Assembly: GCA_965203885.1 (NCBI GenBank)
Contig: OZ241920.1
Span: 3,231,970 to 3,295,969 of the forward strand
Origin: a bacterium
Lineage (GTDB): Bacteria > JAAXHH01
Direction of reading: 5' to 3'
DNA length: 64,000 nt
Position 1 is the first letter of the stretch. Each line of letters starts with the position of its first letter. Below the pieces are notes generated by a model that saw nothing but the letters and a program-made list of their open reading frames with translations, was not told the origin of the DNA and did no database searches. The position numbers and the translations under genes were made by a program. Shown piece after piece: positions 727-26,828 of this stretch.

Positions 727-1341
727 CTACTCAACGCTCCGCCGCACCTCGATGACCTTGCCCAGGAGCGAAAAAGGCGCGCCGTCCTCCCGGGGGATGA
801 TCGGGCTGAAGGCCTCGTTCTCCGGATGCAGCTCGACGCGCCCGTCCCGCTCCCGGTACCGCTTGACCGTTGTCTCGTCGCCCACCAGGGCCACCACGAT
901 GTCCCCCGGAGTGGCCGTCGGCTGCCGGCGCACGATCACGATATCCCCAGGCAGGATGCCGGCATGGAGCATGCTCTCCCCCTCCACCGCCAGCGCGAAG
1001 AGCTCATCGTCGTCGAAACGCGTCTGCACCATGATGTATTCCGGGGGATCCTCCATGGCCTCGGTCAGCTCGCCCGCCTGGACGCGTCCCAGCATGGCGA
1101 TCAACTGGGGCGGACGGGCCTTGCCGAACTCCGGCAGCCGGTAGGAGCGGGACCTGCCGCCGGTCTTGGCGAGCTTGCCGTCGACCACCAGCCGCTCCAG
1201 GTGCTGGCGGGCGGACTGGACGGCCCGGAACCCGAAGGCGCGCTGCACCTCCCGGGTGGTGGGCGGCATGCCGCCCAGGATCCGGTCCCGCACGAAATCG
1301 TAGATCTTCTTCCGGGTCTCTCCGGGCGATGTGTAGGCCAT
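727..1341 (-). CDS. lexA: LexA repressor (S24 peptidase, SOS regulator)
   Basis: N-terminal winged HTH (TTREVQRAFGFRAVQSARQHLERLVVDG), the Ala-Gly cleavage region and a C-terminal S24 domain with GDIVIVRR and a catalytic-type Ser/Lys layout. The true start is the internal ATG at 1341, not the track start at 1422. Confidence 0.85.
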   Translation of the reverse strand: MAYTSPGETRKKIYDFVRDRILGGMPPTTREVQRAFGFRAVQSARQHLERLVVDGKLAKTGGRSRSYRLPEFGKARPPQLIAMLGRVQAGELTEAMEDPPEYIMVQTRFDDDELFALAVEGESMLHAGILPGDIVIVRRQPTATPGDIVVALVGDETTVKRYRERDGRVELHPENEAFSPIIPREDGAPFSLLGKVIEVRRSVE

Positions 1342-1424
1342 GATGGTCTCCCAGGGACGGGGACGGTGAATGGGTCGATGGCAGGGGCCGAGACGCACCA
1401 AAACGCGCGCCTGAAAATCCATAA

Positions 1425-3910: not shown

Positions 3911-5314
3911 ATGCTTCGAGTTGCGACGCTGCTTTGCGCGGCCGCCCTGAGCTGGTACGCGCAACCGGCGCAGGCCCAGGCAGTGACCCAGGAAACGCTC
4001 CTGAACGCGTACTACGACCTCTGGCACGAACTGGGCAGGCAGCCGACTTCGGGGGAAGTCGAGGCGCAGACGCCCTATTCCGCCGGCCGTTACCTGGAGG
4101 TCTGGGAGGACTGGGACGGCGTTCGGCAGGCGCTGGTCGACCATCTGTACCAGAGAGCGCTGTTCGCGGCGCTGCAGCAGGACACGGATACCGCCACGGA
4201 GTTCTATCAGAAAATCCTGGAAATCGATCCCGATCATCCGGAGGCGAATTCGGCTTACGGGATCGACCTGGATGAAGCGGCGGGAAGACGCGCCGAATTC
4301 ACCGTGGAGAAAGCCGGATCGCCGGCGATGTCTTCCTTTATGACGTTTCTTTCCTTACGCGCCCAGGGCGACGGACAGGGGGCGCGCGACTACTTCATGC
4401 TGGCACAGAGCCAGAAGGCGCAACACGTCGCCTCGGAGACCGCGAAGCTGAAGGAACGGTACGACAACGCCGTCGCGCTGTATGAGGGGGGATCGTACAC
4501 GGAGGCGATCGAACAGTTCCGGTTGTTGATGGAAACGAGACCGAACCAGATAGGCTACGATGAAATCTACCGTCCGAACGCCGACGCCATCCGGCAGTAC
4601 CTGGAGGACGCCATCGCGAAAAACGTCGCGGCACGCGCCTCCAGGATCGTATCCATTTCCGATAATTCCAGGTTCTCGGTGTGGATCACCGGCAACTGGA
4701 TGGCGCAGATGGGCGAAATGGGACTGCAGGGAACTCACCTGAGATACGTCCCGACGGGCGAGTTCAACCAGCTGGCCCTGGGGCGTGTGCCGCTCCCTGG
4801 CGACATGAAGCTGGCGCCCAATTCCTACCTGGGAGGCGACCTGGGCGTATCGTTTCGCGTTACGGACTTTCTCTGGGCCGGCGCCGCCTGGTCACAACTG
4901 GTACTGACGCCCTACGCCGAGCTCTCCATGGGCAGCCTGGAAGGCTCCCACAAATTGCCGGAGGGTTCGATTTCGGCCATTTCGGTCTTCGTGGAACCGT
5001 CCACGATGATCTCGAATACGATGCGTGTATACGCGCAGGCGGGCGTGGGACGCTACAGCATCGATTTGCCGGATGCCAGCCTGGGCGCCTCGGGCGCGGG
5101 AAGTCTGCCGAGGTTGTCGTCCCACAAGAGCGCATCGATCGGGGGGTACCTGGGCGGTGGATGCAATTTATGGTTCCTGGCCACCGAAAGCGGGCTGCTG
5201 GGGCTCCGGCTGGATGCGAAGTACCATCTTACCAGGGGGACCGACGGCAGTACGGATCGAACCGTGACACTGGGCGGTGTGCGGCTCGGCGCCGGCCTTA
5301 CGTTCTCGATGTAG
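3911..5314 (+). CDS. Secreted protein with an N-terminal signal peptide, a TPR-like helical region and a beta-rich C-terminal half (possible outer-membrane protein)
   Basis: MLRVATLLCAAALSWYAQPAQA-QA signal peptide. No catalytic motifs recognised. C-terminal half is rich in alternating hydrophobic/Gly residues. Confidence 0.5.
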   Translation: MLRVATLLCAAALSWYAQPAQAQAVTQETLLNAYYDLWHELGRQPTSGEVEAQTPYSAGRYLEVWEDWDGVRQALVDHLYQRALFAALQQDTDTATEFYQKILEIDPDHPEANSAYGIDLDEAAGRRAEFTVEKAGSPAMSSFMTFLSLRAQGDGQGARDYFMLAQSQKAQHVASETAKLKERYDNAVALYEGGSYTEAIEQFRLLMETRPNQIGYDEIYRPNADAIRQYLEDAIAKNVAARASRIVSISDNSRFSVWITGNWMAQMGEMGLQGTHLRYVPTGEFNQLALGRVPLPGDMKLAPNSYLGGDLGVSFRVTDFLWAGAAWSQLVLTPYAELSMGSLEGSHKLPEGSISAISVFVEPSTMISNTMRVYAQAGVGRYSIDLPDASLGASGAGSLPRLSSHKSASIGGYLGGGCNLWFLATESGLLGLRLDAKYHLTRGTDGSTDRTVTLGGVRLGAGLTFSM

Positions 5315-5420
5315 CGGGCGTTACGTGACGCGTTCGATGTAGCCGGTCTTACCTGACGTGTTTGATGTAGCGGGCCGCACGTGGCGCGCTCGATGTAGCG
5401 GGTCTGTCGTGCCGCGCTCT
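5301..5420. repeat. Four tandem 28-30-bp direct repeats (core TCGATGTAGCGGGNC); the first copy contains the stop codon of the preceding gene
   Basis: cgttctcgatgtagcgggcg... / cgttcgatgtagccggtc... / tttgatgtagcgggccgc... / ctcgatgtagcgggtctg... Confidence 0.8.
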
Positions 5421-5478
5421 CTACATTCTCCATGTAATTGATTCGAGGCCGGCCTCGCGTATCCCGGCTGGCCGGATC

Positions 5479-5733
5479 TCAGTACCTTTGCCTGGAAACG
5501 ACGGACCACAGGAAGACCGCCATGCCGGCGAGGACGAGCCCGGCGCCCAGGCACAGGAACAGGGTCATCGAGACCGGGTGGATCCAGAACAGGGTCGCCA
5601 CTTCCACGGCCAGCCCCGCTATGATCAACCAGCCCGCAACGCATAGGCGCGCGGCGAATCCCTTTCGGCGGCCGATCCCTCCCGCACCATTCATTTCACC
5701 ACCCATTTTGCAAGCAATGCCCCGTCCATGCAT
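5479..5733 (-). CDS. Small hypothetical membrane protein with two predicted TM helices
   Basis: 84-aa ORF (or 70-75 aa from internal Met) with helices WLIIAGLAVEVATLFWI and LFLCLGAGLVLAGMAVFLW. Sits immediately downstream of the NrfH-like gene on the same strand. Start codon uncertain. Confidence 0.3.
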   Translation of the reverse strand: MHGRGIACKMGGEMNGAGGIGRRKGFAARLCVAGWLIIAGLAVEVATLFWIHPVSMTLFLCLGAGLVLAGMAVFLWSVVSRQRY

Positions 5734-5737
5734 CAGC

Positions 5738-5884
5738 CTCCCTGACCGTCAATAACCCCGCTCACTCTGCCGCTTCCGGCTGCCATCTCCCTGACAGTCA
5801 CTCATCCCGCTCACTCTGCCGCTTCCGCCCGCCATCTCCCTGACCGTCAGTAATCCGGCTCACTCTCCCGCTTCCGGCCGCCAT
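5738..5884. repeat. Three tandem 49-bp direct repeats (CTCCCTGACNGTCANTNANCCCGCTCACTCTSCCGCTTCCGSCNGCCAT)
   Basis: Seen directly. The array spans the last codons and stop of the NrfH-like gene and abuts the start of the small membrane ORF. Each unit has the near-palindrome CTGACCGTCAG. Confidence 0.8.
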
Positions 5885-6426
5885 CGTCCGAACCGTTCCA
5901 GCTTGTCCACCTCGTGCACCAGGTTGTGGCACATCACGCATGACCGGGAACCGTCGAGGAGCTCACGCAGATAGGGCAGGTGGTCCGGATGCTCCTCGTA
6001 CGTCCGCGCGCCCGCGTGACATTCGAGACAGGCCGTGTTTTCGAAAGGCTCGTACAGCGCGATCGGCTCCGACCAGGTCCCCCAGACGTTGTGCCAGACG
6101 TGCCGCACGCCCCGGATCTTGTCGTCCACGTCCCCGAACATGGTGTAGTCCGAATGGCAGGCGTAGCAGGCGCGGTCCGCGGGGATCCGCTTGTTCTGAA
6201 AATGGGCGGCGGGCAGGAACCGCCCGTCGTCGATATACAGGCTCTCTCCGAAGGGTTTGTTGACGTGGCAGGAGACGCAGAACTCGGTCGACTTGGCCTG
6301 CTCGTAGTGCTGCACGGATCCACCGAGCAGCGCCACGCCGGGCAGCACGAAGAACGTGAAAAAGGCGAATATCATGCCGCCGGCCGAGGCGGTAAGATCG
6401 GGCCGCCTCAGGACCACCGCGATCAT
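5860..6426 (-). CDS. NapC/NirT/NrfH-family membrane-anchored tetrahaem cytochrome c (quinol dehydrogenase type)
   Basis: Four CxxCH motifs (CVSCH, CYACH, CLECH, CVMCH) after an N-terminal TM helix. ATG at 6426. An alternative GTG at 6504, with GGAG 9 nt upstream, would add a second TM helix. The long track ORF extending to 6924 is rejected. Confidence 0.7.
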   Translation of the reverse strand: MIAVVLRRPDLTASAGGMIFAFFTFFVLPGVALLGGSVQHYEQAKSTEFCVSCHVNKPFGESLYIDDGRFLPAAHFQNKRIPADRACYACHSDYTMFGDVDDKIRGVRHVWHNVWGTWSEPIALYEPFENTACLECHAGARTYEEHPDHLPYLRELLDGSRSCVMCHNLVHEVDKLERFGRWRPEAGE

Positions 6427-6468
6427 GGCGAGCGTGACGGCCGCCAGGAAGATGAGGCTGACGGTCAG

Positions 6469-6504
6469 TCCGGTCAGTCCGGACAGTCCGGTCAATCCGG
6501 CCAC
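6469..6504. repeat. 9-bp microsatellite (GGTCAGTCC)x4 at the 5-prime end or leader of the NrfH-like gene
   Basis: ggtcagtcc ggtcagtcc ggacagtcc ggtcaatcc. It is in frame (GLT)n if the GTG 6504 start is used. Confidence 0.7.
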
Positions 6505-6688
6505 TCGGTTCGACTCCTGTCCCGCTGTGAGGCGTTTTCGCGCTAAGTCGGGGCGTTTGGGCCGCGTCGGCCGAGCCGCCAAGGCGCGCCGGCTGCTTCG
6601 GCCCGACCACTCCAACCGCTCCGGCCGCGCCAACCGCTTCGGCCAGGACGTTCCGATCTCTTCGGCTACCCCAGGCCACTCCAACCGC

Positions 6689-7999
6689 TTACTCCGCCCC
6701 GCCGTACCTCCTGGCGTCTTCACGAAGGTCCCGGGCGAGCGACCTGATCTCGGCCAGGTCCTGCACCATCTCGCTCCAGCCGTACCACAGCGCGTAATCG
6801 GGATTGTTGTGGAAGGTCCCCTGGAACGCCCGCATGCGATGCTCCAGGTGCATCCGGAAGAGGCGCTGCTCGATGGTCGAAGGCGCGTCGTGGAACGCCA
6901 GCAGGTCGGGAAAGTCGTAGGCATAGTGTTCAGGCCGGACCAGGATCCCGTCCCGGTAGAGCGCGGAGACGATGCGGATGGCCTCGGCCAGGAGCCGGTC
7001 GGTCTCGCGGATCATCTCGTCGCCCTTTTCGAGTTCCGCCCGCACGAGATTCTCCGAATGGCACTGCTCGCAGATCCCGGTCATGCGGTCGCGCTCGCGC
7101 TGCCAGTCTTCCTGGGTCAGCCGGGCCACGTCGGCCTGCCTGACCACCTCCAGCCGCGGAGTGGGGTTGCCATCGGGGTCCAGCACGCCGAGCGCCTGGA
7201 GGATGGTCGCCCGGTCCGCCGCCCACTGCGCGTCTTCCGGCATGGGCAGGCGGACGGCCAGGAACCCCCACGCGGTCCGCACGCCATGGTCGCCCTGGGG
7301 CATGTGGCAGGTCTGGCACGTGGGCGCCTGGGCATGTTCCGGCAGCGTGCCGTTCTGCTTGAGCAGGTGCCGCACGCCGTGCTTGGAGGAGGAGTACATC
7401 TCCCACTGGGGATGGTCGAATCCCATGTGGCACGTCCTGCACGCCTGGGGCTCCCGCGCCTCCTTCACCGAAAAGAGATGGCGGGTGTGGCATACGTCGC
7501 AGGACGACAGGCCGAACAGCCCGTCCTGCGCCTTGATCGTCTTGATTTCCTCTTCGGTCTTGAGGCCGATGCGGTGGCACCCGCCGCAGCCTTTCATCCC
7601 CTCGGTCAGGGCCATGGGCAGGAAGTGCGTCGTCGGCATGGCGTTCATGCTGGCCCAGGCGAGGGCGTGCTTGCCCCCCGCGAACTGTTCCACCTGGATC
7701 GGATGGCACGTGGCGCAGACGTCGGGCGTGGCGACCCCGGCCAGGTGCGCGTCCTCCTCCGTGCGGTGCTCGCCGCCGTGACACATCACGCAGTACACGC
7801 CGCTCGTGCTGTGGGTGCTGAGTTCCCAGTCCGTGACGATACCGGGCGTGGCGTCCTGGTGGCAGGTCACGCAGTCGGACGCGGCCCGGGGCGGTTCTGC
7901 CGAAGGACCGCAGGATGCTACGGAAGCTACGGAAATCAAAAAAGACAGGGCGAAAAGCGGAATGAACGGGCGGCGGGTGGGGGCAGGGAGCTTCATCAT
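6689..7999 (-). CDS. Octaheme c-type cytochrome, hydroxylamine-oxidoreductase (HAO)-like family, predicted lipoprotein
   Basis: Eight CxxCH motifs (CVTCH, CVMCH, CATCH, CGGCH, CDVCH, CRTCH, CQTCH, CEQCH) followed by a haem-free helical C-terminus of about 130 aa. Signal peptide with lipobox SVASC. Start taken at MMKLP (7999). Family call is by haem count and layout; no CxxCK, no CX15CH. Confidence 0.65.
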   Translation of the reverse strand: MMKLPAPTRRPFIPLFALSFLISVASVASCGPSAEPPRAASDCVTCHQDATPGIVTDWELSTHSTSGVYCVMCHGGEHRTEEDAHLAGVATPDVCATCHPIQVEQFAGGKHALAWASMNAMPTTHFLPMALTEGMKGCGGCHRIGLKTEEEIKTIKAQDGLFGLSSCDVCHTRHLFSVKEAREPQACRTCHMGFDHPQWEMYSSSKHGVRHLLKQNGTLPEHAQAPTCQTCHMPQGDHGVRTAWGFLAVRLPMPEDAQWAADRATILQALGVLDPDGNPTPRLEVVRQADVARLTQEDWQRERDRMTGICEQCHSENLVRAELEKGDEMIRETDRLLAEAIRIVSALYRDGILVRPEHYAYDFPDLLAFHDAPSTIEQRLFRMHLEHRMRAFQGTFHNNPDYALWYGWSEMVQDLAEIRSLARDLREDARRYGGAE

Positions 8000-8162
8000 C
8001 TGATCGCCGCTCCAATCTCGATGAACGTTTGGGCCTATCGCGTCATCGAATACGCATCCCCGGGCAGGGCGGTGCCGAAATCCGACGACCGTCATCTAAT
8101 GCATGATATGTCATAGCGTCTATGAAATACAACAAAAAACCCCGGCCCGGTTTCGCAATGGG

Positions 8163-8666
8163 TCACGGCCCCTCCCAGGGCCGTATCCTCGGTATCCAGC
8201 GCGGCACGTTCTCTTTGTACAGCCGGTAGGCGTCGCCGAACCGGCGCTCGAGGCCCGGCTCCTCGTGGAACGGGAAATAGATCGCGCACACCAGGAAAAA
8301 CACGCCCATCCAGCCCGCGAGGTGCCAGGAGCCGAAGAGCAGGGCTTCGGCGCCGAGGATGAGCACCATGCCCGAATTCATGGGGTTGCGCACGTGGCGG
8401 TAGGGACCGAGGACGACCAGCTTCTCGGGCGGCGCCCACGGCGCCGGCGTGCCCTTGCCGACCCGGTCGAACAGCGTCATGGTCCAGACCGCCAGGAACA
8501 GGCCGTCCACCGCCATGGCGATCCCGATCCAGAACCGGACCTGCGCGGGTTCCGCCGGCGACAGTGCGCCCGGCGTGCCGGCCGCCACCCACAGAATCGC
8601 GCCCGGGACGTAGATCGTAGCCGCCGCCGGGAGGAGGACGACGGCACGCGCGGTGGTCCACTTCAT
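8163..8666 (-). CDS. Isoprenylcysteine carboxyl methyltransferase / phospholipid methyltransferase family membrane protein
   Basis: GPYRHVRNPMNSG motif plus multiple TM helices, typical of the ICMT/PEMT class. Confidence 0.7.
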   Translation of the reverse strand: MKWTTARAVVLLPAAATIYVPGAILWVAAGTPGALSPAEPAQVRFWIGIAMAVDGLFLAVWTMTLFDRVGKGTPAPWAPPEKLVVLGPYRHVRNPMNSGMVLILGAEALLFGSWHLAGWMGVFFLVCAIYFPFHEEPGLERRFGDAYRLYKENVPRWIPRIRPWEGP

Positions 8667-9923: not shown

Positions 9924-10319
9924 CTACTCGAGCAACGCCACGCCCTCCTGCCGGGCGGCGTTCCGATCGAAAGTATACAATGGAAGGGCTTCAACCCGTT
10001 CGGCCGCGGCCCGGATCATCAGACCGGAAAACCCGGCGCCACCGTCCCTGTAGCGGAAAGCCGCCGTCGCGACGTCGTCCGCGGCCTCCATCACGAGGAC
10101 CTCCGTCGAGACCAGGTCGTCGAGCACATCGGCGATCCGGTCGCGGTCGAAGCCGTATGCGCGCTCCAGGACGCAGACGAGCTCGACCACGACTTCCCGG
10201 CCGATGAATCCCGGTTCCTCAACCGTAAGCGACGTCAGCAGTACGTGGGCCGCCGCGGCCTGTCTTTCATCATCGCGAACGAGAAACCGGACAAGGACAT
10301 TGGTATCGAGCGCGATCAT
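9924..10319 (-). CDS. vapC: VapC PIN-domain ribonuclease toxin
   Basis: MIALDTNVLVRFL... with the conserved acidic residues of a PIN domain. Overlaps the vapB stop by 4 bp. Confidence 0.8.
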   Translation of the reverse strand: MIALDTNVLVRFLVRDDERQAAAAHVLLTSLTVEEPGFIGREVVVELVCVLERAYGFDRDRIADVLDDLVSTEVLVMEAADDVATAAFRYRDGGAGFSGLMIRAAAERVEALPLYTFDRNAARQEGVALLE

Positions 10320-10549
10320 TCCTCACGGGCTCCATCGGAAACCGCCTGCTCCATGTCCTCCAGCGTGACGGCGGGACCGTTGTGTTCCAGTGCGCCGAAC
10401 AGCCGTCCGATCGGGCGTACGGGCAGAATGCGCACCTCGTCTTCGCAGATCACGTAGCGGACCCTGTCGGGGCCACTGATGCCGAGCGTTTCACGTACCG
10501 CCTTGGGCAGCGTGGTCTGTCCTTTTCTGTTGATTCTGGATTCGATCAT
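10316..10549 (-). CDS. vapB: VapB antitoxin, AbrB/MazE/SpoVT-type DNA-binding fold
   Basis: 77 aa, N-terminal swapped-hairpin motif RINRKGQTTLPKAVRETLGI. Confidence 0.7.
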   Translation of the reverse strand: MIESRINRKGQTTLPKAVRETLGISGPDRVRYVICEDEVRILPVRPIGRLFGALEHNGPAVTLEDMEQAVSDGAREE

Positions 10550-13228: not shown

Positions 13229-13398
13229 GGGCCTGCGGGAGCGAAGGTCCGATGGGTGAGGATCTGACAGGCCGAGGATCAGATCGTTTAGGCCCGGACG
13301 GGTGAGGCCTGCGGGAGCGCGCTGCCGGAAGGCTTTGGGACGAATTGGCCAGGACTGACGAGGTACGGACTGGCGAGGACCGGATTTATGAGGACCGG

Positions 13399-14220
13399 AT
13401 GACGATTACCATTCCGAAGGTGGATATACCCCAGGATGCCGGCGACCGGTACCGGCGCGACGGCTTCTATCTCGCTCCGCCCATCATCCCAGCCGATCTG
13501 ATCGAGCGCGTGACCGAGAGCATGGACCGGGTCATGGCCGGCGAGTACGAGACCGGGGAACCTCCGCGCCGATCGTGGAACCCCGGCGACGACCCGAAGC
13601 GCATCCGCAAGATCGACCAGGCGCACCTGTCGGACCGTACGATCTACGAACTGGCCTCGCACCCGGAGATCGGCCGCTGGGCGGCGGCCCTGCTGGGCGC
13701 GGAACGGGTCCAGCTCTGGGCGTCCCAGATGCTCTACAAGCCGCCGGCCGGCCCGGGCGGCTCGGGCGGTTCGAGCGTCGGGGTGACGGGCAACGTCGGG
13801 TGGCACCAGGACAAGCAGTACTGGAAATTCCTGGACGGCGAGCTGTACACGGCGTGGGTCGCCGTGAGCGACGTGACCGGGGAGTCCGGGCCCATGCGGT
13901 TCCTGCGGGGTTCGCACCGGTGGGGCCTGCTGGACAGCGGCGACTTCTTCGGGCACGACCACGAAGCCCAGCGAAAGGGCATCCCCGTGCCGGAGGGAGA
14001 AGCCTGGGACGAGGTCGAGGCGGTCCTGCCGCCCGGCGCGGTCAGTTTCCATGACCGCCACACCTACCATGCCAGCGGGCCGAATGTATCGAACGCGCCG
14101 CGCCGGAGTTTCGCCTTCCACCTGCGGACCGAGCACGCACGGCCGGTCGAAGGGCGGGACGACTACTACGTGCAGCACCTGGACGATCCCGCCTATTGTC
14201 CGGTGCTGTACGAGGCGTGA
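13399..14220 (+). CDS. Phytanoyl-CoA dioxygenase (PhyH) family Fe(II)/2-oxoglutarate oxygenase
   Basis: WHQD (HxD) motif and PhyH-type N-terminus RRDGFYL. First ATG at 13399 with GAGGA 4 nt upstream (track start is TTG). Confidence 0.7.
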   Translation: MTITIPKVDIPQDAGDRYRRDGFYLAPPIIPADLIERVTESMDRVMAGEYETGEPPRRSWNPGDDPKRIRKIDQAHLSDRTIYELASHPEIGRWAAALLGAERVQLWASQMLYKPPAGPGGSGGSSVGVTGNVGWHQDKQYWKFLDGELYTAWVAVSDVTGESGPMRFLRGSHRWGLLDSGDFFGHDHEAQRKGIPVPEGEAWDEVEAVLPPGAVSFHDRHTYHASGPNVSNAPRRSFAFHLRTEHARPVEGRDDYYVQHLDDPAYCPVLYEA

Positions 14221-14624: not shown

Positions 14625-17600
14625 ATGCTCAACGACCTCTTCCATCCCGCCGTGGCCGCCTGGTTCGACGACCGGTTCGAGGAACCGTCCGACATCCAGA
14701 AGCGGGCCTGGCCGGTCATCAAGCAGCGGCAGAACACGCTGATCGCCGCGCCCACGGGTTCGGGCAAGACCCTGGCGGCCTTCCTGTCGTCCATCGACGA
14801 CCTGGTCCGGCAGAGCCAGTACGGAACGCTGCCCGAGGGCACGCAGATCGTCTACGTTTCTCCCCTGAAGGCCCTCAGCAACGACATCCACGCCAACCTG
14901 CAGGTCCCCCTGAAGGGCATCAAGGCGATCCTCAAGGAGCGCGGGAGGCCGGACGCGCCCATCCGCGTCGCGGTGCGCACGGGCGACACGCCCACGAGCG
15001 AGCGGGCCGCCATGACGAAGCATCCGCCCCACATCCTGGTGACGACGCCGGAGAGCCTGTACCTGCTGCTCACGAGCGCGGGCGGGCGGCGGATCCTGCC
15101 GAACGTGCATACCCTCATCATCGACGAGATCCACGCGCTGGTCGGCAACAAGCGCGGATCGCACCTGGCCCTTTCGGTGGAGCGCCTGGAACGGCTCACC
15201 TCCGGCCCGCTCACGCGCATCGGCATCTCGGCAACCCAGAAGCCCATCGACCGGATCGCCCACTTCCTCACCGGCGCGGGCTACGCGAAGGGGAAGGGAT
15301 GCAAGGTCCTCAATACGGGCCACCGGCGCAAACTCGAGCTGAAGATCGAAGTCCCGCGCTCCCCCCTCGGCGCCGTCATGTCGAACGAGGTCTGGGAGGA
15401 GGTGTACGAGCGCCTCGAGGAACTCATCCTGCGGCACCGGACCACGCTGGTCTTCGTCACGACGCGGAGCATGTCGGAGCGGCTGGCCCGCCACCTGAGC
15501 GACCGGCTGGGCGCCGAAAACGTCACCTCCCACCACGGCAGCATGTCGAAGGAGCACCGGCACGACGCCGAGCAGCGGCTGAAAGCGGGCGCGCTGAAGG
15601 CCCTCGTGGCCACGGCCTCCCTGGAACTGGGGATCGACATCGGTTCCGTCGACCTCGTCTGCCAGATCGGCTCCCCCAAGGCCATCGCCACGCTGATCCA
15701 GCGCGTGGGCCGGTCGGGACACACGATCACGGGCACGCCGAAGGGCCGGCTTTTTCCGCTGACGCGGGACGAACTGGTGGAGGCCGCGGCGATCATGGAT
15801 TCGGTGCGGCGGGGCGAACTCGACCGGATCATCATCCCCGAACAGCCGCTGGACGTGCTGGCCCAGCAGATCATCGCCGAGGTGGGTAATAGCGATTTCC
15901 AGGAGGACGACCTGTACCACCTGGTCCGCCGGGCCTACCCGTACAGGAACCTTGCCCGCGAGGAATTCGACGGCGTCGTGGCCATGCTGGCCGAGGGCTA
16001 TACGCCGCGCCGGGGACGCAAGCACGCTTACATCCAGCGGGACCTGATGCACGGGGCGGTCAAGGGCCGCAGGGGGGCGCGGATCAACGCCCTCATGTCG
16101 GGCGGGACGATCCCGGACCAGTTCGACTACGACGTGATCATGGAGCCCACGGAGACCTTCATCGGCACGCTGAACGAGGACTTCGCCATCGAGAGCACGG
16201 CCGGGGACATCGTGCAGCTGGGGAACAACTCGTGGCGGATCCTGCGCGTGGAAAAGGGCAAGATCCGGGTCGAGGACGCCCAGGGCCTGCCGCCCACCAT
16301 GCCCTTCTGGTTCGGCGAGGCGCCGGGAAGGACGGCGGAGCTTTCCGCTTCGCTGTCGCGGCTGCGGGAAGAGGTGGCGAGCCGGATCGACCTGGGCGCC
16401 GGGGACGGCAGACCGACGGATGGCGACGGATCGGAAGCCGCGATCGGACGCGACGATGGGGCGGGCTCTGAAGCCGCGAACGGTCGCGACGACAGGGCAG
16501 GATCGGCGAACGGGCAGGACGGCGGGAGGAAGCTCGACCCCGATTGGAAGAAAGCGGCCGAAGACTGGCTGATGGAGTCCGCGGGCGTCTCCCACGTGGC
16601 GGCGACGCAGATCGCGGAGTACCTGGGCGCGACCAGGGCGGCCCTCGGCGTCATCCCCTCCCAGAAGGACCTGGTGGCGGAACGGTTCTTCGACGAGGCC
16701 GGCGACATGCACCTCGTGCTCCACAGTCCCTTCGGAAGCCGGGTCAACCGCGCCTGGGGACTGGCCCTGCGCAAGCGGTTCTGCCGGACCTTCAACTTCG
16801 AGCTGCAGGCCGCGGCGAACGAGGATTCCATCATCCTGTCCCTGGGCGCCACCCACAGCTTCCCCCTCGACGACGTCTTCCGCTACCTCAACGCGAAGTC
16901 GGTCCGGGAGGTCCTGGTCCAGGCCCTCCTCGACGCGCCCATGTTCGAGGTGCGCTGGCGCTGGAACGCGTCGACCGCCCTGGCCGTGCTGCGGCGCAGG
17001 GGCGGGGACCGGGTGCCGCCGCAGATACAGCGGTCCGTGGCCGAGGACCTGATCGCCCAGGTGTTTCCCGATCAGATCGCGTGCCTGGAGAACATCGCGG
17101 GCGACCGGGAGGTGCCGGACCATCCCCTGGTCACCCAGACCATCGAGGACTGCCTGCACGAGGCCATGGACGTGTCGTCGCTGGAGGCTGTGCTGAAGGC
17201 GATGAAGGCCGGGGAAATGAACGTGCACGCGCGGGACCTGCGCGAGCCCTCGCCCATGGCCGAGGAGATCCTCAACGCCCGGCCCTATGCCTTCCTGGAC
17301 GACGCGCCCCTCGAGGAGCGGCGGACCAACGCCGTCCGGAACCGCCGCTGGCTCGACCCCGCGGTCGCGGGCGACCTGGGACGCCTGGACCCGGAGGCCA
17401 TCGACACCGTCCGGGGCGACGCCTGGCCCGAGGTGCGGAGTCCCGACGAACTCCATGACGCCCTCGTGCTTGCGGGGTACGTCACGGAAGAAGAGGGAAA
17501 GAAGGGCGATCAGTACGGAGGCTGGACGGACTACTACGCCGTGCTGGAGAGCGACCGGCGGGCCGCGACGCTCGTGACGGAGGGCGGGAAGCGCCTCTGG

Positions 17601-19271
17601 GCGCCCCTGGAGCGGCGCATCCATTTCGAACGGGTGCATCCCCGGGGTCGGTTCGAGCCGGCGGAGGAAATCCCGGCCGAGGTGAGACGCAACCTGGAGA
17701 AGAGTTTTCAGTCCGCAACCGGCGCGTCCGCTACTGACGGTGCGGCTGCTGCGACCACCGAGGCCGATGCATCGGACGGTGCGACCAGTGCATCGGTCGC
17801 CGCGTCTGACGGCGCGTCCGGCCCTGACGCGTCCGCAACGGAAGAGGCCGCGCTGGTGGAACTGATGCGGGGGAGGCTGGAGACCCTGGGACCGGTCACG
17901 GCGGCCGGGCTGGCCGCGTCCATCGATCTGCCGGTGGGCAGGATCGAACAGGCGCTGTCCGCGCTGGAGCACGAGGGATTCGTCTTCAGGGGACAGTTCT
18001 CGCCGGACGCGGACGGGCTGGAATGGTGCGAGCGGCGGCTCCTGGCGCGGATCCACCGCTTCACGATCACGAGGCTCCGCCGGGAGATCCAGCCCGTTTC
18101 ACCCGCCGACTTCATGCAGTTCCTTTTTACCTGGCATCACCTGGCGCCCGATACCCGGCTGAAGGGGCCCGACGCCGTGACTGCGGTGCTGCGCATGCTC
18201 GAAGGCGTGGAAGCGCCGGCGGCGGCGTGGGAGAGCGAGATCCTGCCTTCCCGCGTTTCCGACTACGACTATGCCTGGCTCGACAACCTGTGCCTCTCCG
18301 GCAAGTACGCCTGGGGGCGGCTCCGTCCCCACCGTTCGAACGGCGAGAACGGGAAGACGGCCGGTCCGATCCGGACGACGCCCATCGCCATCGTGGACCG
18401 GATGAACCGGTCGCTGTGGATGTCCCTGAGCGGCGTAACCGGCGAGGAAGACCTTCCCCTGTCCACCTACGCGAAGACGGTCCTGGACCTGATGACCCGG
18501 CAGGGCGCGGTGTTCTTCGACGACATCGTCGCGCAGGCGGGGATCCTGCGCACCCACGCCGAGGAGGCCGTGGCGGAGCTGGTCTCGGCGGGCATGGCGA
18601 CCTCCGACAGTTTCGCGGGACTCAGGGCCCTGCTGGCGCCGACGCGTCACCGGGAGTCCCGGCGGGGACGGGAACGGGTCAATCCCTTCGACCTGTCGAC
18701 GGCGGGACGGTGGGGGCTGACTTCAAGGACCCCGGAGGAAGGCCGCGGGGAGGAGGATCTCGAGGCCTACGCCCGCGTCGCCCTGGCCCGGTACGGCGTG
18801 GTGTTCCGGCGGCTCACGGAACGGGAGAACGCCTCGCCGCCGTGGCGGGACCTGGTGCGGGTGCTGCGACGCATGGAAGCCCGGGGAGAGATCCGCGGCG
18901 GCCGGTTCGTGAACGGCGTCTGGGGCGAGCAGTACGCCCTGGGCGAGGCCGTCACCCTCTTGCGAAGCATCCGCCGGAAAGAGAAGCAGGGCACGCTCGT
19001 CGCCATCAGCGCGGCCGACCCGCTGAACCTGGTCGGGATCATCACCCCCGGCAGGCGCATTCCCGGGATCACGAACAACCGGATCCTCTACCGGGACGGC
19101 GAACCGATCCTGATCATGGAAGGCGGCGAAATCAGGGAGGCGTCCCCGGTGGCGGCCGAAGAACAGTGGGCCTTGCGGCAGGAACTGGTCAAGCGGGAGT
19201 TCCCGCCGAAGCTGAAGGCCTATCTGAGCGGCCGGCGCCCCCGGGAAAAGACCGCCGCGCAAAAGTCCTGA
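14625..19271 (+). CDS. lhr: Lhr-family large ATP-dependent DEAD/DEAH-box helicase
   Basis: 1548 aa. N-terminal motifs [24 protein letters not shown]. Overall length and architecture match Lhr. Carries acidic/Gly low-complexity insertions. Confidence 0.85.
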
Positions 19272-21279: not shown

Positions 21280-21663
21280 CGGGGGTGGGGACACGGGTTC
21301 AGTTCGTCGTTTCATGGTGAAGATATGGACGAGATCGGTTCGAGGTTTGGGCGTGAAATATTGAAAAGATCCGATCTCACGCAATGTACGGCTCGTCGTA
21401 CGTAAATCAAAGTATATACAGTAAATAAACGTATTCGGCACGTACCTTTTCCTTGATTTTCAGGCCGCGGAAGTGTACATTTGCGAATCTGATCGCACCG
21501 CGGATTCCTCATGCTGAACCGCGGTTTCCTCGCGCCGCCTCGACGCCCCAATCCGCACTCGCAATCGGCAGGCTTACGGGTGCATCCACTTTATTGATAT
21601 ATGACTGGTCCCGTTCATTCCGCACGACGGCACGCCCCGCAGCATAGTCCCAAAGGACGCTCC

Positions 21664-23865
21664 ATGCGCCTGGCCGATCCCCTGCCGGATCAGATTCAGA
21701 AGAAAATCTACCCCGTACTGGAGCCCAACGAAGAAATCCACATCACGCTGGAATCGGACATGGACGCGAGGGGCCGGTTCGAGCCTTCGTGGCTCATCGT
21801 GACCGACCGCCGGGTCATGGCCCTGGAACTGAACGGCTCGGGCGACGACATCGCCGTCCCGCTTTCGGACCTGACCAGGGTGGCCGTGGAACCCCTGGTC
21901 GGCGGGTCCCGCCTGGAAGTCTCCACGGCCGAAGACACCATCCCGCTCATCCAGTATTCCCAGAGCCGGGTCGACCTCTTCAATGAGGCGCAGCGGGGCA
22001 TCGAGCAGCACATCGAAGAAAAGCCGTTCCAGGTCAAGACGGAGTTCCCGCGGGTGGTCTGCGAGACCTGCGGCCGGCGCCTGCCCACGAAGGACGGGCT
22101 GTGTCCGGCCTGCGTCAGCAAGTGGGGCATGCTCAAGCGGATCTGCTCCTACCTGGGCGCCCACCGGGGCAAGGCCGTCATCATGGTGGCGCTGTTCGCC
22201 GTGCTCAGCGTGGCGGAGCTCCTCCCGCCCAAGATCACGCAGCTCATCATCGACGACGCCTTCGCGAACGGGGACACGGAGCTCCTGTTCTGGCTGGTCG
22301 CGGTCATGGGCGTCCTGCTCGTCGTCCGGTGGCTGGGCGAGATGGCGAACGGCTGGCTGACGGCCTGGGTGGGCGCCCGCGTGGTGGCGGACATCCGGGC
22401 CCAGGTGTACCACCACGTGGAATACCTATCGCTTGGATTCCACGACAAGCAGAAGACGGGCGGCCTGCTTTCGCGGGTAACGCGGGACACCCGGAACGTG
22501 CGCAGCTTCCTGGTGGACGGCCTGCCCTTCCTCGTCCTCCGCTGGCTGACGACGCTCGGGATCATCGGCATGCTGTTTTATACCAACTGGGTGCTCACGC
22601 TGTACATCCTGATCCCCGTCCCGCTCATCGTCATATGGGGCCGGGTACTGTATAAGAGACTGCGGGTCTACTACACCCGTATGTGGCGCCAGTGGGAAGG
22701 GTTCTTCACCCACATCCAGGAGTCCCTTTCGGGGATCCGCATCGTCAAGGCCTTCGCCCAGGAAAACAGGGAAGTCGGCCGGTTCAGGCGCAACGCGCGG
22801 GACATGTTCGCCCTGGAATACTGGACCGAGAAGCAGTGGATCTACTACTTCTCCACCATGGGCCTGCTGAACTTCCTGGGCTTCATCGTGGTCTGGCTGG
22901 TGGGCGGCAGGCAGGTGCTCGGGCAGGAGCTCACCACGGGCGAACTGATCATGTTCTACTTCTATTTGCACATGTTCTACGGACCGCTGCGCTGGCTCGG
23001 CCGGGTCAACAGCTGGATGACCCGGGCGATGAGCGCCGCCGAGCGGGTCTTCGAGCTCATCGACATGGAGCCGGAGAATTACGAGGACCGGAACGCGAGG
23101 CCGATGCCGGGCACCCGGGGCGAGATCGTCTTCGAGAACGTGACGTTCGGCTATGACGCCGCGCTGCCGGTGCTCCGGGACGTCAATCTCCATATCCGGC
23201 CCGGCGAGATGATCGGACTGGTCGGCAAGTCGGGCGCCGGGAAGAGCACGACCATCAATCTCATCTGCCGGTTCTACGATGTGAATTACGGTTCGATCAC
23301 CCTGGACGGCGTGGACCTGCGGGACATCCGGCTCGAGGACCTGCGGGGCCACATCGGCGTCGTCCTGCAGGAACCGATCCTCTTCAACGGCACGATCCGG
23401 GAGAACATCGCCTACGGGAAGCCCGCCGCGAGTTTCGAGGATATCATGACGGCGGCCCGCGCGGCCAACGCCCACAACTTCATCCTCGCGAAGCCCGACG
23501 GATACGACACGATCCTCGGGGACAAGGGCAACGGACTGTCGGGCGGCGAGAAGCAGCGCGTCTCCATCGCCCGGGCGATCCTCCACGACCCCCGCATCCT
23601 GATCCTGGACGAGGCGACTTCCTCGGTGGACGCCGAGACGGAGAAACAGCTCCAGGAAGCCATCGCCCGGTTGATCAAGGGACGTACGACGATCGCCATC
23701 GCCCACCGCCTGTCCACGCTGCGGGACGCCGACCGGCTCGTGGTGCTGGAGCAGGGAAGGGTCGTCGAGGAAGGCACCCACGAGGAACTGATCGCGAACC
23801 GCGGCCATTTCCATCACCTGGTGCGGTTGCAGAAAGCGACCTCCGAGATCATGGAGGTGGCCTGA
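21664..23865 (+). CDS. ABC exporter (fused permease plus ATPase) with an N-terminal cytoplasmic PH-like domain and a CxxC...CxxC zinc ribbon
   Basis: N-terminal about 180 aa (WLIVTDRRVMALEL...; CETCGRRLPTKDGLCPAC), six TM helices, then Walker A GKSGAGKST, signature LSGGEKQR and Walker B ILILDEATS. Start at MRLADP. Confidence 0.85.
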   Translation: MRLADPLPDQIQKKIYPVLEPNEEIHITLESDMDARGRFEPSWLIVTDRRVMALELNGSGDDIAVPLSDLTRVAVEPLVGGSRLEVSTAEDTIPLIQYSQSRVDLFNEAQRGIEQHIEEKPFQVKTEFPRVVCETCGRRLPTKDGLCPACVSKWGMLKRICSYLGAHRGKAVIMVALFAVLSVAELLPPKITQLIIDDAFANGDTELLFWLVAVMGVLLVVRWLGEMANGWLTAWVGARVVADIRAQVYHHVEYLSLGFHDKQKTGGLLSRVTRDTRNVRSFLVDGLPFLVLRWLTTLGIIGMLFYTNWVLTLYILIPVPLIVIWGRVLYKRLRVYYTRMWRQWEGFFTHIQESLSGIRIVKAFAQENREVGRFRRNARDMFALEYWTEKQWIYYFSTMGLLNFLGFIVVWLVGGRQVLGQELTTGELIMFYFYLHMFYGPLRWLGRVNSWMTRAMSAAERVFELIDMEPENYEDRNARPMPGTRGEIVFENVTFGYDAALPVLRDVNLHIRPGEMIGLVGKSGAGKSTTINLICRFYDVNYGSITLDGVDLRDIRLEDLRGHIGVVLQEPILFNGTIRENIAYGKPAASFEDIMTAARAANAHNFILAKPDGYDTILGDKGNGLSGGEKQRVSIARAILHDPRILILDEATSSVDAETEKQLQEAIARLIKGRTTIAIAHRLSTLRDADRLVVLEQGRVVEEGTHEELIANRGHFHHLVRLQKATSEIMEVA

Positions 23866-23904
23866 CCGGCGCCGGTTGCCGGATCGGGCGAGGACTGTAA
23901 AGGC

Positions 23905-26265
23905 ATGACGGATACCACGGATACCACGACCACCTACGAAGAGCGGATGCCCGACGCGCTGGCCGGCCGTTGCCGGGAGGCGCTGCGTGAAGGGGAGTCC
24001 GTCCGTATCGCGGCGGCGACCGACCTGACGGAAGACCTGCGGTTCGAGGAACGCTGGCTCGTGGTGACGGACCAGCGCCTGATGCGGTTCGATACGAACG
24101 GGGCGCACGCGGGGGCGGGAGCGGGCGCAGGGTCGCGCGCGGGCAACGGGGACGCGGGCAACGGGAACGCCTCCATCGAGTTCTCCGACGCCAAAAGCGC
24201 CGCCGTGGAAGAACTGGTCGGCTCGGGCCGGATCAACGTGGTGATCGGCAACGAAGAGGTCGAGGTCATCCGCTACACGCCGTCCCAGCGCGCCAAGTTC
24301 GCGCGGATCGCCCGGGGTATCGACCAGCTCATCAAGGAAGAACCGGTCGATATGCAGGGGGAGGTGGACCGCACCCGGTGCGACCAGTGCGGACGCCTTC
24401 TGCCCGAGCCGAACGGGATCTGTTCGGCGTGCACCAACCGGCTCGCGATGATGGCGCGGATCGCCCGGTACGCCCTGCCCTTCAAGGGCCGCCTCGCGCT
24501 CATGGTCTTCCTGTCGCTGCTGTTCACCCTGGCCGAACTCGGTCCGCCCTACATCATGCGGATCATCATCGACGACGTACTGGTCGACCCCGGCGCCGCC
24601 GCGGCCGGGGACGCCGCGGCCGGAGACCCCTTCGCGCTCCTCTACCTGCTCGTCGGCGCCTACGCGGTCATCCGGCTGGTGTCCTTCGTCCTGGAGATCT
24701 TCAAGGACCGGCTCTCCGTCTGGCTCGGCGGCCGCGTGATCGTGTCCGTCCGCGAGGACCTGTACGAGAACCTGTCCCGCCTGGGCATGAAGTTCTACAA
24801 CAAGCGGCAGGTCGGGTCCCTGATCTCGCGGGTATCCAACGACACGGAGAGCATGATGTGGTTCCTGGTCGACGGCGTGCCCTACATCATCACCAACCTT
24901 CTGCTCCTGGCCGGGATCCTGGTCCTGCTTTTCCTGACCAGCTGGCAGCTGACGCTCCTGGTGCTCATCCCCATACCCCTGCTCGTAATCGGAGGGGGAT
25001 TCTTCTGGGTCCGGCTGATCCGGGCCTTCCGTACGAAATACTACCGCTGGGGCAAGCTGGTGGGCATGGCGGGCGAGATGCTCTCCTCGGTGCGCGTCGT
25101 AAAGACCTTCGTCCAGGAAAAGCGGGAGATGCGGCGGTTCAGGAGCAGCAACGAAGGCGTCTTCCAGGGAGATTACGAGAGCGAGAAGGAAGCGGCCGTG
25201 TTCTTCAGCACGGTCAGCATGCTCACTTCGTCGGGACTGATCCTGGTCTGGTTCTACGGGGGATCGGCCGTCATCGACGGGGACTTCACCCCCGGCGCGC
25301 TCATCATGTTCATCGCCTACCTCTGGATGCTGTACGAACCGCTCCGGTGGTTCGGCGAGCTGAACACCTGGTCGAGCCGGGCCATGAGCGGCGCGGAGAA
25401 GGTCTTCGAAATCGTCGACACCGCGGCGGAAACCGAGGACCGGGACGACCCGGTCGAGATGAAGGACATGCGCGGCGAGGTGGAGTTCAGCGACGTGGTC
25501 TTCGCCTACGAGGCGGGCAAGCCCGTACTCCACGACATCAACCTGCACGTGCGGCCCGGCGAGATGATCGGCCTGGTGGGCAAGTCCGGTTCCGGCAAGA
25601 CGACGATGACCAACCTGCTGTGCCGGTTCTACGATATCGACGAGGGCGGCCTGATGATCGACGGCGTGCCGATCCGGGACATCGGCCTGGAGGACCTGCG
25701 AAGGCAGATCGGCGTCGTGCTGCAGGACTCCTACTTCTTCAGCGGCTCCATCGCGGAGAACATCCGGTACAGCAGTCCGGACGCCTCGTTCGATCAGATC
25801 ATGCGGGCGGCCCGGACGGCGAACGCCCACGATTTCATCTGCGCGAAGCCCGACGGCTACGACACGCAGATCGGCGAGAACGGCAAGGAACTGTCGGGGG
25901 GCGAAAAGCAGCGGATCGCCATCGCGCGGGCCATCATCCACGATCCCCGCATCCTGGTCCTGGACGAGGCGACCTCCTCGGTGGACACCCACACGGAGAA
26001 GCTCATCCAGGAGGCCATCGCCAACCTCGTGAAGGGCCGGACGACCTTCGCCATCGCCCACCGGCTGTCGACCCTGCGCAGGGCGGACCGGCTGGTGGTG
26101 CTGGACGCGGGCAAGATCGTGGAGACGGGCACCCACGAGGAACTGCTGGACATGAAAGGCCATTTCTACCGCATGGTCGAGACGCAGCGGGCGAGCACCG
26201 CGGTCCTGGCCGTGGGCGGGGGCAAGAGCGACCCGAACCGTGACGCCAACGGACACACATCGTAA
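23905..26265 (+). CDS. Paralogous ABC exporter with the same N-terminal PH-like plus zinc-ribbon domain
   Basis: WLVVTDQRLMRFD..., CDQCGRLLPEPNGICSAC, GKSGSGKTT, LSGGEKQR, ILVLDEATS. Has a Gly/Ala/Asn low-complexity insert in the N-domain. Confidence 0.85.
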   Translation: MTDTTDTTTTYEERMPDALAGRCREALREGESVRIAAATDLTEDLRFEERWLVVTDQRLMRFDTNGAHAGAGAGAGSRAGNGDAGNGNASIEFSDAKSAAVEELVGSGRINVVIGNEEVEVIRYTPSQRAKFARIARGIDQLIKEEPVDMQGEVDRTRCDQCGRLLPEPNGICSACTNRLAMMARIARYALPFKGRLALMVFLSLLFTLAELGPPYIMRIIIDDVLVDPGAAAAGDAAAGDPFALLYLLVGAYAVIRLVSFVLEIFKDRLSVWLGGRVIVSVREDLYENLSRLGMKFYNKRQVGSLISRVSNDTESMMWFLVDGVPYIITNLLLLAGILVLLFLTSWQLTLLVLIPIPLLVIGGGFFWVRLIRAFRTKYYRWGKLVGMAGEMLSSVRVVKTFVQEKREMRRFRSSNEGVFQGDYESEKEAAVFFSTVSMLTSSGLILVWFYGGSAVIDGDFTPGALIMFIAYLWMLYEPLRWFGELNTWSSRAMSGAEKVFEIVDTAAETEDRDDPVEMKDMRGEVEFSDVVFAYEAGKPVLHDINLHVRPGEMIGLVGKSGSGKTTMTNLLCRFYDIDEGGLMIDGVPIRDIGLEDLRRQIGVVLQDSYFFSGSIAENIRYSSPDASFDQIMRAARTANAHDFICAKPDGYDTQIGENGKELSGGEKQRIAIARAIIHDPRILVLDEATSSVDTHTEKLIQEAIANLVKGRTTFAIAHRLSTLRRADRLVVLDAGKIVETGTHEELLDMKGHFYRMVETQRASTAVLAVGGGKSDPNRDANGHTS

Positions 26266-26279
26266 GCGGGGAGAACGAG

Positions 26280-26828
26280 ATGCCGAAAGAACCTGGCGTG
26301 GACGCGCCGGACACCTTTGAATTCGAAACGGGGATCGAGAACGCGCCCGTCGAACCTTACCAGGCGCACGAGATCCGCGTGTTCAGGGCGCCGGCCCACA
26401 CGGTGCGGATGACGGTCACGGGCGAGCGGTCCTACATCCGCGTCCGGCCGGTCAACGCCTCGCCCATGGCCCACAACGACCGGTACGTGTCGCTCCTGGA
26501 CATCAAGAACGAGGAAGTGGCCTTCATCAAGGACATGAACGACCTGGACGAGGAGTCGCGCAAGGTCATCGAGGAAGAGCTGGCGCACCGGTACCTGAGG
26601 GCGACCATCGCGTGCGTCCACTCCATCCAGATGGAGTATGGCGTGACCTACTGGGACGTAACGACCGACCGGGGGAAACGGGAGTTCGTCATCCGCGGCC
26701 ACGAGAACACCCACTGGGCGTCGGATACGCGGCTGCTGCTTACCGACGTGGACGGCAACCGGTTCGAGGTCGTCGACTACACGAAACTGGACCCCAACAG
26801 CGTGCGGTTGATCGAGACGAACGTGTGA
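26280..26828 (+). CDS. Conserved hypothetical cytoplasmic protein, DUF1854-like, co-oriented and 15 bp downstream of the ABC pair
   Basis: 182 aa with no TM helix or signal peptide. From memory this family usually accompanies this class of ABC exporter pair; the family label is not verified. Confidence 0.45.
   Translation: MPKEPGVDAPDTFEFETGIENAPVEPYQAHEIRVFRAPAHTVRMTVTGERSYIRVRPVNASPMAHNDRYVSLLDIKNEEVAFIKDMNDLDEESRKVIEEELAHRYLRATIACVHSIQMEYGVTYWDVTTDRGKREFVIRGHENTHWASDTRLLLTDVDGNRFEVVDYTKLDPNSVRLIETNV

Follow-up and report, generated by a model that had tools for sequence, protein, structure and literature searches.

Octaheme cytochromes of the hydroxylamine oxidoreductase (HAO) family are divided into oxidative and reductive types by whether a C-terminal tyrosine forms a cross-link to haem 4 of the adjacent subunit. 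Absence of this tyrosine marks the reductive HAOs, and none of the cross-link-deficient HAOs assayed to date oxidises hydroxylamine at a useful rate (PMC8042395). Outside the anammox bacteria nearly all HAOs are inferred to be reductive, and ancestral reductive HAOs carry a histidine at the key site (PMC12758564). One cross-link-free enzyme, Kustc0458 of Kuenenia stuttgartiensis, is known to reduce nitrite to nitric oxide (NO) (PMC8042395). Its rate of hydroxylamine oxidation is low, at most about 0.02 U per mg. A link between HAO-family enzymes and quinones has its precedent in the hydroxylamine:quinone redox module (HURM) and reverse-HURM proposals, in which HaoA is paired with the NapC/NrfH-type cytochrome CycB (PMC3701875). 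Here we analysed a 64,000-nucleotide stretch of the bacterial contig OZ241920.1 (the window), which contains three consecutive genes for a predicted octaheme lipoprotein of the HAO family, a NapC-like tetrahaem cytochrome and a small membrane protein. We consider it probable that this operon is a quinol-linked reductive HAO module, that is, a reverse HURM, which reduces nitrite, NO or hydroxylamine.

The octaheme protein carries eight CxxCH motifs (at C43, C70, C95, C138, C167, C187, C228 and C310), none of which varies among 23 close or 52 diverse relatives. Its C-terminal 120 residues are haem-free and form long helices in an AlphaFold2 (AF2) model. The protein matched the HAO family of Pfam (PF13447, 84 bits versus a cut-off of 21.9, E 1.3e-23), and a profile search against the Protein Data Bank (PDB) returned HAO-family chains only (E 6e-39 to 3e-26), the best of which was Kustc0458 (5.6e-39 with the family profile). 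For the AF2 model, which is a monomer, we used an alignment of 52 diverse sequences and obtained a predicted local distance difference test score (pLDDT) of 89, versus 59 when the 23 close homologues were used alone. When the model was submitted to Foldseek, the top 11 matches all belonged to the HAO family and Kustc0458 was again the first. Comparison values for the octaheme protein were 24.8 with Nitrosomonas europaea HAO (NeHAO), 23.0 with Kustc0458, 22.6 with HOX and 21.4 with IhOCC, and, outside the HAO family, 10.6 with octaheme nitrite reductase (ONR) and 9.1 with NrfA. The fold is the HAO fold, distinct from those of ONR, octaheme tetrathionate reductase (OTR) and NrfA. A first-pass annotation of the window, made by eye, had described an octaheme HAO-family lipoprotein with eight CxxCH motifs and a haem-free helical C terminus. 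The open reading frame (ORF), its lipobox and the AF2 model bear this description out, and neither Pfam nor the PDB profiles nor Foldseek grouped the protein with OTR or another non-HAO family. An exact look-up of the protein in public assemblies returned no record.

Haem 4, which we take to be the catalytic haem from HAO structures, is bound within a GMKGCGGCH segment that is invariant in 23 family members, and its CxxCH motif is invariant in the 52 diverse relatives as well. Asp195-His196 aligned with Asp267-His268 of NeHAO and with the Asp-His pair of Kustc0458. This pair is invariant within the family, while among the 52 diverse relatives the Asp is found in 38 and the His in 42. The number of conserved histidines outside the haem motifs fits seven bis-His haems and one open haem. 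Tyr467 of NeHAO, the cross-linking residue, aligned with Leu404 (HMMER), in a region firmly anchored by the flanking motifs G-x-x-H-x-N-P and G-W. The loop enclosed by the Pro of the first motif and the Gly of the second has seven residues in NeHAO (G-G-W-T-Y-T-E) and also seven in HOX, the tyrosine being the fifth in both, whereas the loop of the octaheme protein has six (D-Y-A-L-W-Y), as does that of the cross-link-free Kustc0458 (D-V-S-W-W-W). Many related clades have a His in column 404, which matches the His reported at the key site of reductive HAOs (PMC12758564). The NCBIfam equivalog for the oxidative hydrazine dehydrogenase (hydrazine_HDH, NF052343) scored 77 bits versus a cut-off of 900. 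Judged by the tyrosine criterion of the field (PMC8042395, PMC12758564), the octaheme protein is predicted to be a reductive-type HAO. The first-pass annotation had proposed a check of the cross-linking tyrosine and of the distal-pocket residues and had held that an oxidative and a reductive enzyme could not be told apart by eye; with the tyrosine absent, Asp195-His196 kept and the loop shortened, the choice is narrowed to the reductive type, with a caveat concerning Tyr402 and Tyr406 that we take up below.

We then placed the operon in its genomic context. The octaheme family comprises more than 6,800 protein clusters at 65–90% identity, and at least 589 species genomes, from Acidobacteriota, Gemmatimonadota, Latescibacterota, Nitrospirota, Calditrichota, Ignavibacteria, Zixibacteria and others, contain relatives. 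No Campylobacterota proteins were found among the cluster members of 20 family representatives. Synteny and lipobox were surveyed in the 80 best octaheme loci. The order octaheme gene, NapC-like gene, small ORF was present in all 22 loci with downstream sequence that belong to one subclade, whose octaheme proteins are 74–92% identical to that of the window and which was monophyletic in 50 of 50 neighbour-joining bootstraps. Neither partner gene was found in any of the 63–74%-identical loci outside this subclade, and in the loci inspected there the octaheme gene mostly stands alone, in varied contexts. A lipobox was present in 23 of 23 subclade loci versus none of 55 others (two spurious pattern matches were discounted), the latter having ordinary signal peptides. 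A lipid anchor had earlier been called uncommon for an HAO-family protein, and it was indeed found only in the subclade that has both membrane partners; the related copies of this subclade also keep the NapC-type partner and the small ORF, as the annotation had proposed to check. The carriers of the triad span several phyla and its flanks vary, and no fourth gene around it is conserved across lineages. Complete MAG (metagenome-assembled genome) chromosomes with the triad include OY764083.1, OY760650.2, OZ246889.1 and OZ242366.1. Relative to the closest relative, L001, the ratio of non-synonymous to synonymous substitution rates (dN/dS) was 0.075 for the octaheme gene, 0.11 for the NapC-like gene and 0.15 for the small ORF. 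All three genes are under purifying selection, and the three form one unit of inheritance. We discarded the idea that the T-R-R-P-F stretch in the signal peptide of the octaheme protein is a Tat signal, since L001 does not conserve this stretch and export of c-type cytochromes takes place in the unfolded state.

Some of the surveyed loci showed a different arrangement. Extra DNA separates the NapC-like gene from the small ORF in L021 (7202-9187, about 1.1 kb) and L014 (7446-8394), and the NapC-like protein of L021 is truncated at 196 amino acids, which suggests an insertion into the module or its decay in L021. A second, distant HAO-like octaheme gene (23–27% identity) adjoins or lies near the family member in L057 (4436-5914), L039 (807-2051) and L040 (11815-13062); in L057, a Nitrospirae metagenome-assembled genome (MAG), it lies directly upstream on the same strand. 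The Cytophagia MAG locus L033 (7462-10446) has a partner-less octaheme gene followed by genes for a 164-amino-acid protein, a six-helix membrane protein and a nine-haem cytochrome with two helices. These may serve the soluble form of the enzyme as a different set of membrane partners.

The NapC-like protein has four CxxCH motifs, conserved in 20 homologues, and matched the NapC/NirT family of Pfam (PF03264, 39.6 bits versus a cut-off of 24.1). All named equivalogs stayed under their cut-offs (NrfH TIGR03153, 33.6 versus 134.2; NapC/NirT TIGR02161, 30 versus 310.6; TorC, 28.8 versus 478), and the match to the NrfH chain 2j7a_C had an E value of 0.36. Two hydrophobic helices, not the single one of the NapC/NirT/NrfH family, lie ahead of haem 1, which is also preceded by a conserved His. 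At haem 1 itself, the NrfH-type CxxCHxM reads CVSCHVN in the window, the last position being Asn, Ile or Met across the clade. We regard the protein as a divergent member of the NapC/NirT superfamily with an extra transmembrane helix. The first-pass annotation had named it a NapC/NirT/NrfH-type membrane cytochrome; the four haems and the family stand, and the number of transmembrane helices is two, not one.

The small protein likewise consists of two hydrophobic helices, and its position behind the NapC-like gene is kept in 20 subclade loci. In 15 of these 20 the start of the small ORF overlaps the stop codon of the NapC-like gene (ATGA or GTGA). Pfam and NCBIfam searches with the ORF yielded sub-threshold noise only, and its relatives, which fill at least 449 database clusters and are 61–86 amino acids long, have no Pfam domain and no meaningful name. 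His39, located in the loop between the helices, is invariant across the subclade and a sister clade. Conserved in at least 20 loci and with the dN/dS given above, the mini-protein proposed earlier is real.

This sister clade consists of NapC-like proteins of Acidobacteriota (42–52% identity), and again a homologous small ORF abuts or overlaps their stop codon. The neighbouring genes are different ones: in 4 of the 6 loci examined, an MtrB/PioB porin is encoded together with a monohaem cytochrome c and an MtrA-like multihaem protein. Of the other two loci, one has the monohaem cytochrome and one begins at a contig edge. Such a gene set is like that of an mto/pio cluster and hints at iron oxidation or extracellular electron transfer. 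Since the small ORF follows the NapC-like gene in both clades while the neighbours differ, we read the two as a conserved two-gene module that was reused with different periplasmic partners. Although the family is well studied, a two-helix member with an obligate small partner seems not to have been described in it.

In a working model of the reductive module, the two helices of the NapC-like protein and those of the 71-amino-acid protein would form a four-helix anchor that oxidises quinol at the periplasmic face of the membrane. Electrons would then travel through the four c-haems of the NapC-like protein to the octaheme protein, which would be kept at the membrane by its N-terminal lipid anchor and a tether of about 12 residues and which presumably forms a homotrimer, as do other HAOs with their ring of 24 haems. 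By way of seven bis-His haems the electrons would arrive at the five-coordinate haem 4, which would reduce a nitrogen oxide with Asp195-His196 as proton relay. The substrate may be nitrite, NO or hydroxylamine and the product ammonium or NO. Complex formation, anchoring in the inner membrane, direction of electron flow, substrate and product are all points that we infer. A further step is more tentative, though possible: the NapC-like and the small protein may be the subunits of a quinol dehydrogenase with a four-helix anchor, in which the invariant His of the small subunit, at the periplasmic face of the membrane, would be a haem ligand or part of a quinol site. Evolution would have plugged this dehydrogenase into an HAO-type reductase here and into Mto/Pio-like conduits in the sister clade, and a fixed supercomplex with the lipid-anchored, trimeric HAO-type enzyme would make it a hard-wired reverse HURM.

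Several observations weigh against a quinol-linked reductive module. NapC-family proteins work in either direction, and cM552 of the ammonia oxidisers is thought to reduce quinone. The lipid-modified Cys of the octaheme protein is followed by Gly, which by the sorting rules of E. coli would route a lipoprotein to the outer membrane, although the rules of these phyla may differ. Among 30 other ORFs of the 64-kb window that were scanned with Pfam, none was a gene for nitrate, nitrite or NO metabolism, and at 184 nucleotides (nt) and about 165 nt the spacers are longer than is usual in operons. Finally, Tyr402 and Tyr406, both invariant in the family, flank the key site, and one HMMER alignment to HOX set the HOX tyrosine opposite Tyr406. 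Among the 52 diverse relatives, however, this position is Tyr in 28 and Leu, Arg, Glu or Asn in the others, and such a lack of conservation in sister clades argues against a catalytic cross-link at Tyr406. The two tyrosines would otherwise favour a forward HURM, in which the octaheme enzyme oxidises hydroxylamine (leaked by ammonia oxidisers, for example) to NO or nitrite and delivers the electrons via the NapC-like protein to the quinone pool, for detoxification or energy gain. We consider this quite unlikely. The catalytic subunit comes first and a NapC-family tetrahaem cytochrome after it, which resembles the hao clusters of ammonia oxidisers (PMC3701875), but the operon lacks a gene for a c554-type partner. 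Likewise, public annotation names the relatives 'hydroxylamine dehydrogenase' and a study of sponge Latescibacterota takes hao as nitrification (PMC12993501), but the oxidative equivalog scored far below its cut-off, Leu404 occupies the position of Tyr467 in a loop as long as that of Kustc0458, a catalytic cross-link residue should be conserved where position 406 is not, and HAOs deficient in the cross-link have so far failed to oxidise hydroxylamine at useful rates (PMC8042395).

It is also unlikely that the substrate is something other than a nitrogen compound, in which case a general CymA-like quinol dehydrogenase would supply the lipid-anchored octaheme protein, and the latter would serve as an electron hub of the periplasm or would reduce sulfur oxyanions, metals or other acceptors. 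All characterised HAO-family enzymes act on N-N or N-O compounds (PMC8042395), even if promiscuity in vitro is a trait of the multihaem enzymes in this superfamily (PMC5276818). The MtrA-like, MtrB/PioB and monohaem cytochrome c genes that adjoin the sister-clade pair would suit such a role, as would the lack of nitrogen-cycle genes in the window scans and among conserved neighbours, but the invariant Asp-His pair and a histidine count that leaves one haem open point to catalysis at haem 4, and 65–70% identity across many phyla suggests a tightly constrained catalytic function. A very improbable alternative is that the three genes are mere neighbours, the cytochromes being independent and the small ORF spurious in GC-rich DNA. 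High-GC DNA does yield many long spurious ORFs; this one, though, has invariant residues in two clades, a large number of clustered relatives and a low dN/dS. The spacers of the window are long and repeat-rich, and the promoter and terminator scan assigned none, but in close relatives the spacers are short, the start of the small ORF overlaps the preceding stop in most subclade loci, and order and adjacency are kept in 22 of 22 loci from several phyla with varying flanks. We therefore retain the quinol-linked reductive module as the probable reading.

The boundaries of the genes were revised by comparison with homologues. The start codon of the NapC-like gene lies exactly 66 amino acids ahead of haem 1 in 20 of 20 homologues, which in the window is GTG 6504, with an AGGAG ribosome-binding site nine bases upstream. 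Because of this start, the distance between the cytochrome genes is 184 nt rather than the 260 bp claimed by the first-pass annotation, and the microsatellite (period 9, 4.3 copies; Tandem Repeats Finder, TRF) is coding. Its placement between the genes was ruled out by the same comparison, as it lies in frame within the 5' coding end of the NapC-like gene, with four units in the window versus two in the close relatives L001 and L087. Dispersed repeats had been reported between the cytochrome genes as well, and here CCACTCCAACCGCT was seen, in two exact copies and one with two mismatches, confined to this spacer; three matches were reached by 2 of 100 shuffles, so the count may be due to chance. 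The spacer is 51–55 nt long in L001 and L087 and was enlarged in the window by imperfect repeats of the surroundings of the octaheme stop codon (repeat families D3 and D5). The second spacer, ahead of the small ORF, is filled by a 49-nt tandem duplication in three copies (TRF score 233, 87% matches; repeat family D1), the first of which overlaps the stop codon of the NapC-like gene. Close relatives are without these expansions. The third gene is best read as 71 amino acids (5694 to 5479), the length at which a 94%-identical database relative is called.

Imperfect short tandem arrays (period 19–49 nt, 2–5 copies) occur in many intergenic spacers of this genome (5305-5419, 9675-9764, 10574-10621, 21198-21284 and 49965-50089, besides 5738-5885 and 6585-6700 at the triad). 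Since many spacers of the window carry such arrays, the repeats at the cytochrome genes reflect a genome-wide habit and are not specific to this locus. A terminator scan found no minus-strand terminator in the triad spacers; the sole minus-strand terminator-like site lies within the NapC-like coding sequence and was taken as chance. The promoter scan found no sigma-70 consensus in the spacer upstream of the octaheme gene, and an Rfam search of 5200-8400 gave no match. This upstream spacer, which is adjoined by a PEMT-like gene (8163-8666), is the first sizeable non-coding stretch upstream of the triad. Coordinates are collected in the table.

Table. Features of the three-gene locus, its surroundings and the sister-clade loci; positions refer to the window unless a locus is named.
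Feature	Position	Strand	Length or basis
Octaheme HAO-family cytochrome c, predicted lipoprotein	6689..7999	-	436 aa
NapC/NirT-family tetrahaem cytochrome c, two N-terminal transmembrane helices	5860..6504	-	214 aa
Small membrane protein, two transmembrane helices	5479..5694	-	71 aa; alternative start 5733
Lipobox V27-A28-S29-C30, end of signal peptide	7910..7921	-	read from sequence
Fourth haem motif C138-G-G-C-H142, predicted catalytic haem 4	7574..7588	-	
Asp195-His196, predicted distal-pocket acid-base pair	7412..7417	-	alignment
Loop P400-D-Y-A-L-W-Y-G-W408, site of the P460 cross-link tyrosine (Leu404 here)	6776..6802	-	HMMER alignment
Spacer between octaheme and NapC-like genes, imperfect repeats	6505..6688	-	184 nt
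9-nt in-frame microsatellite, N-terminal (G-L-T/S)x4 of the NapC-like protein	6462..6500	-	TRF
49-nt x 3 tandem duplication of the NapC-like gene 3' end	5738..5885	-	TRF
Upstream spacer, likely promoter region of the three-gene unit	8000..8162	-	inference only
Toxin-antitoxin-like and DNA-repair surroundings	1723-2117, 9924-10549, 727-1422	-	
Toxin-antitoxin-like and DNA-repair surroundings	14625-19271	+	
Sister-clade loci	L081 3428-5880, L082 1182-5818, L083 1125-5818, L084 1259-5800, L085 1646-2789		

The operon lies among toxin-antitoxin-like pairs (HicA/HicB-like; PIN-domain and AbrB-type) and DNA-repair genes (LexA-like, GIY-YIG, PolB-type exonuclease and Lhr helicase); the Pfam check among these genes covered the GIY-YIG protein, the PolB-type exonuclease and the Lhr helicase only. 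Further away, two genes of the PhyH family (phytanoyl-CoA dioxygenase-like) are found on the plus strand (13345-14220 and 26887-27801), the second of which adjoins a fused ABC exporter pair and a DUF1854 gene (21601-26828). On the minus strand, 42711-47357 encodes a 1548-amino-acid eukaryote-like repeat protein with many leucine-rich repeats and a bacterial Ig-like domain, and contains a coding repeat array (46888-47279).

Latescibacterota MAGs are the nearest relatives of the window, and the bin names of some related MAGs (COS, RHO) may point to sponge hosts. Labels such as 'hao' or 'hydroxylamine dehydrogenase' are routinely given to genes of this family, which are then taken as a potential for nitrification, as in sponge Latescibacterota (PMC12993501), whereas the analysis of the key site reads these family members as cross-link-free and of the reductive type. 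If the supercomplex of two-subunit quinol dehydrogenase and HAO-type enzyme is real, abundant uncultured Acidobacteriota and Latescibacterota would gain a respiratory reduction of nitrite, NO or hydroxylamine that is now misread as nitrification. The idea of a reverse HURM rested on unlinked genes of one organism. Here a single operon, co-inherited and co-transferred, offers a clean system for genetic and biochemical tests, so that current understanding is extended and made testable rather than overturned.

Among the described systems, the reverse HURM of Nautilia profundicola and the epsilon-Hao of Campylobacterota likewise combine an HAO-family octaheme protein without the cross-link tyrosine with a NapC/NrfH-family tetrahaem cytochrome as quinone link, and nitrite reduction has been proposed for them (PMC3701875, PMC8042395). 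In N. profundicola the genes are unlinked (NAMH_1280 and NAMH_0559), whereas in the window they form one operon with a third gene. Moreover, the octaheme protein of the window is a predicted lipoprotein and its NapC-like protein has two helices and a small partner. The reductive HAO of K. stuttgartiensis (HAOr, Kustc0458/Kustc0457, PDB 6h5l) has in common with the octaheme protein the six-residue loop without the cross-link tyrosine and the Asp-His pair. The two are 24–31% identical, Kustc0458 has no lipid anchor, and its key site is Trp where the window has Leu. Its partner is a soluble dihaem cytochrome, with which it forms a 60-haem dodecamer, while the partner in the window is a membrane protein of the NapC type: the only other cytochrome of the operon is the four-haem NapC-like protein, in place of a dihaem protein like Kustc0457.

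The HAO of Nitrosomonas europaea, which works with c554 and cM552 (PDB 1fgj, 4fas and 6m0p), differs in having a loop longer by one residue and a cross-link between Tyr467 and haem P460. This enzyme is soluble, uses c554 as intermediary and runs in the oxidative direction. Oxidative P460 enzymes (HAO, HOX and HDH) are recognised by a Soret band at 460–475 nm in the reduced state and by a covalent trimer. Of the haoA-haoB-cycA-cycB clusters of ammonia oxidisers, the operon has the counterparts of haoA and of the NapC-family cycB. Neither the operon of the window nor any of the 22 syntenic loci has a gene for a separate tetrahaem cytochrome of the c554 type (cycA). IhOCC of the archaeon Ignicoccus hospitalis (PDB 4qo5) is 21–26% identical and associates with the membrane in a different mode; to our knowledge, it has no NapC-type partner gene. 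NrfHA (PDB 2j7a) is likewise a periplasmic multihaem reductase of N-oxides that sits on a quinol dehydrogenase of the NapC/NrfH family. For the neighbours in the sister clade, the matching gene set is presumably MtoA-MtoB-MtoD-CymA of iron oxidisers, and we know of no description of a conserved small two-helix partner for CymA-type proteins. Compared with the CymA-type proteins of mto/pio-like clusters, the sister clade sits in the same gene set, whereas the copy in the window is coupled to an HAO-type enzyme.

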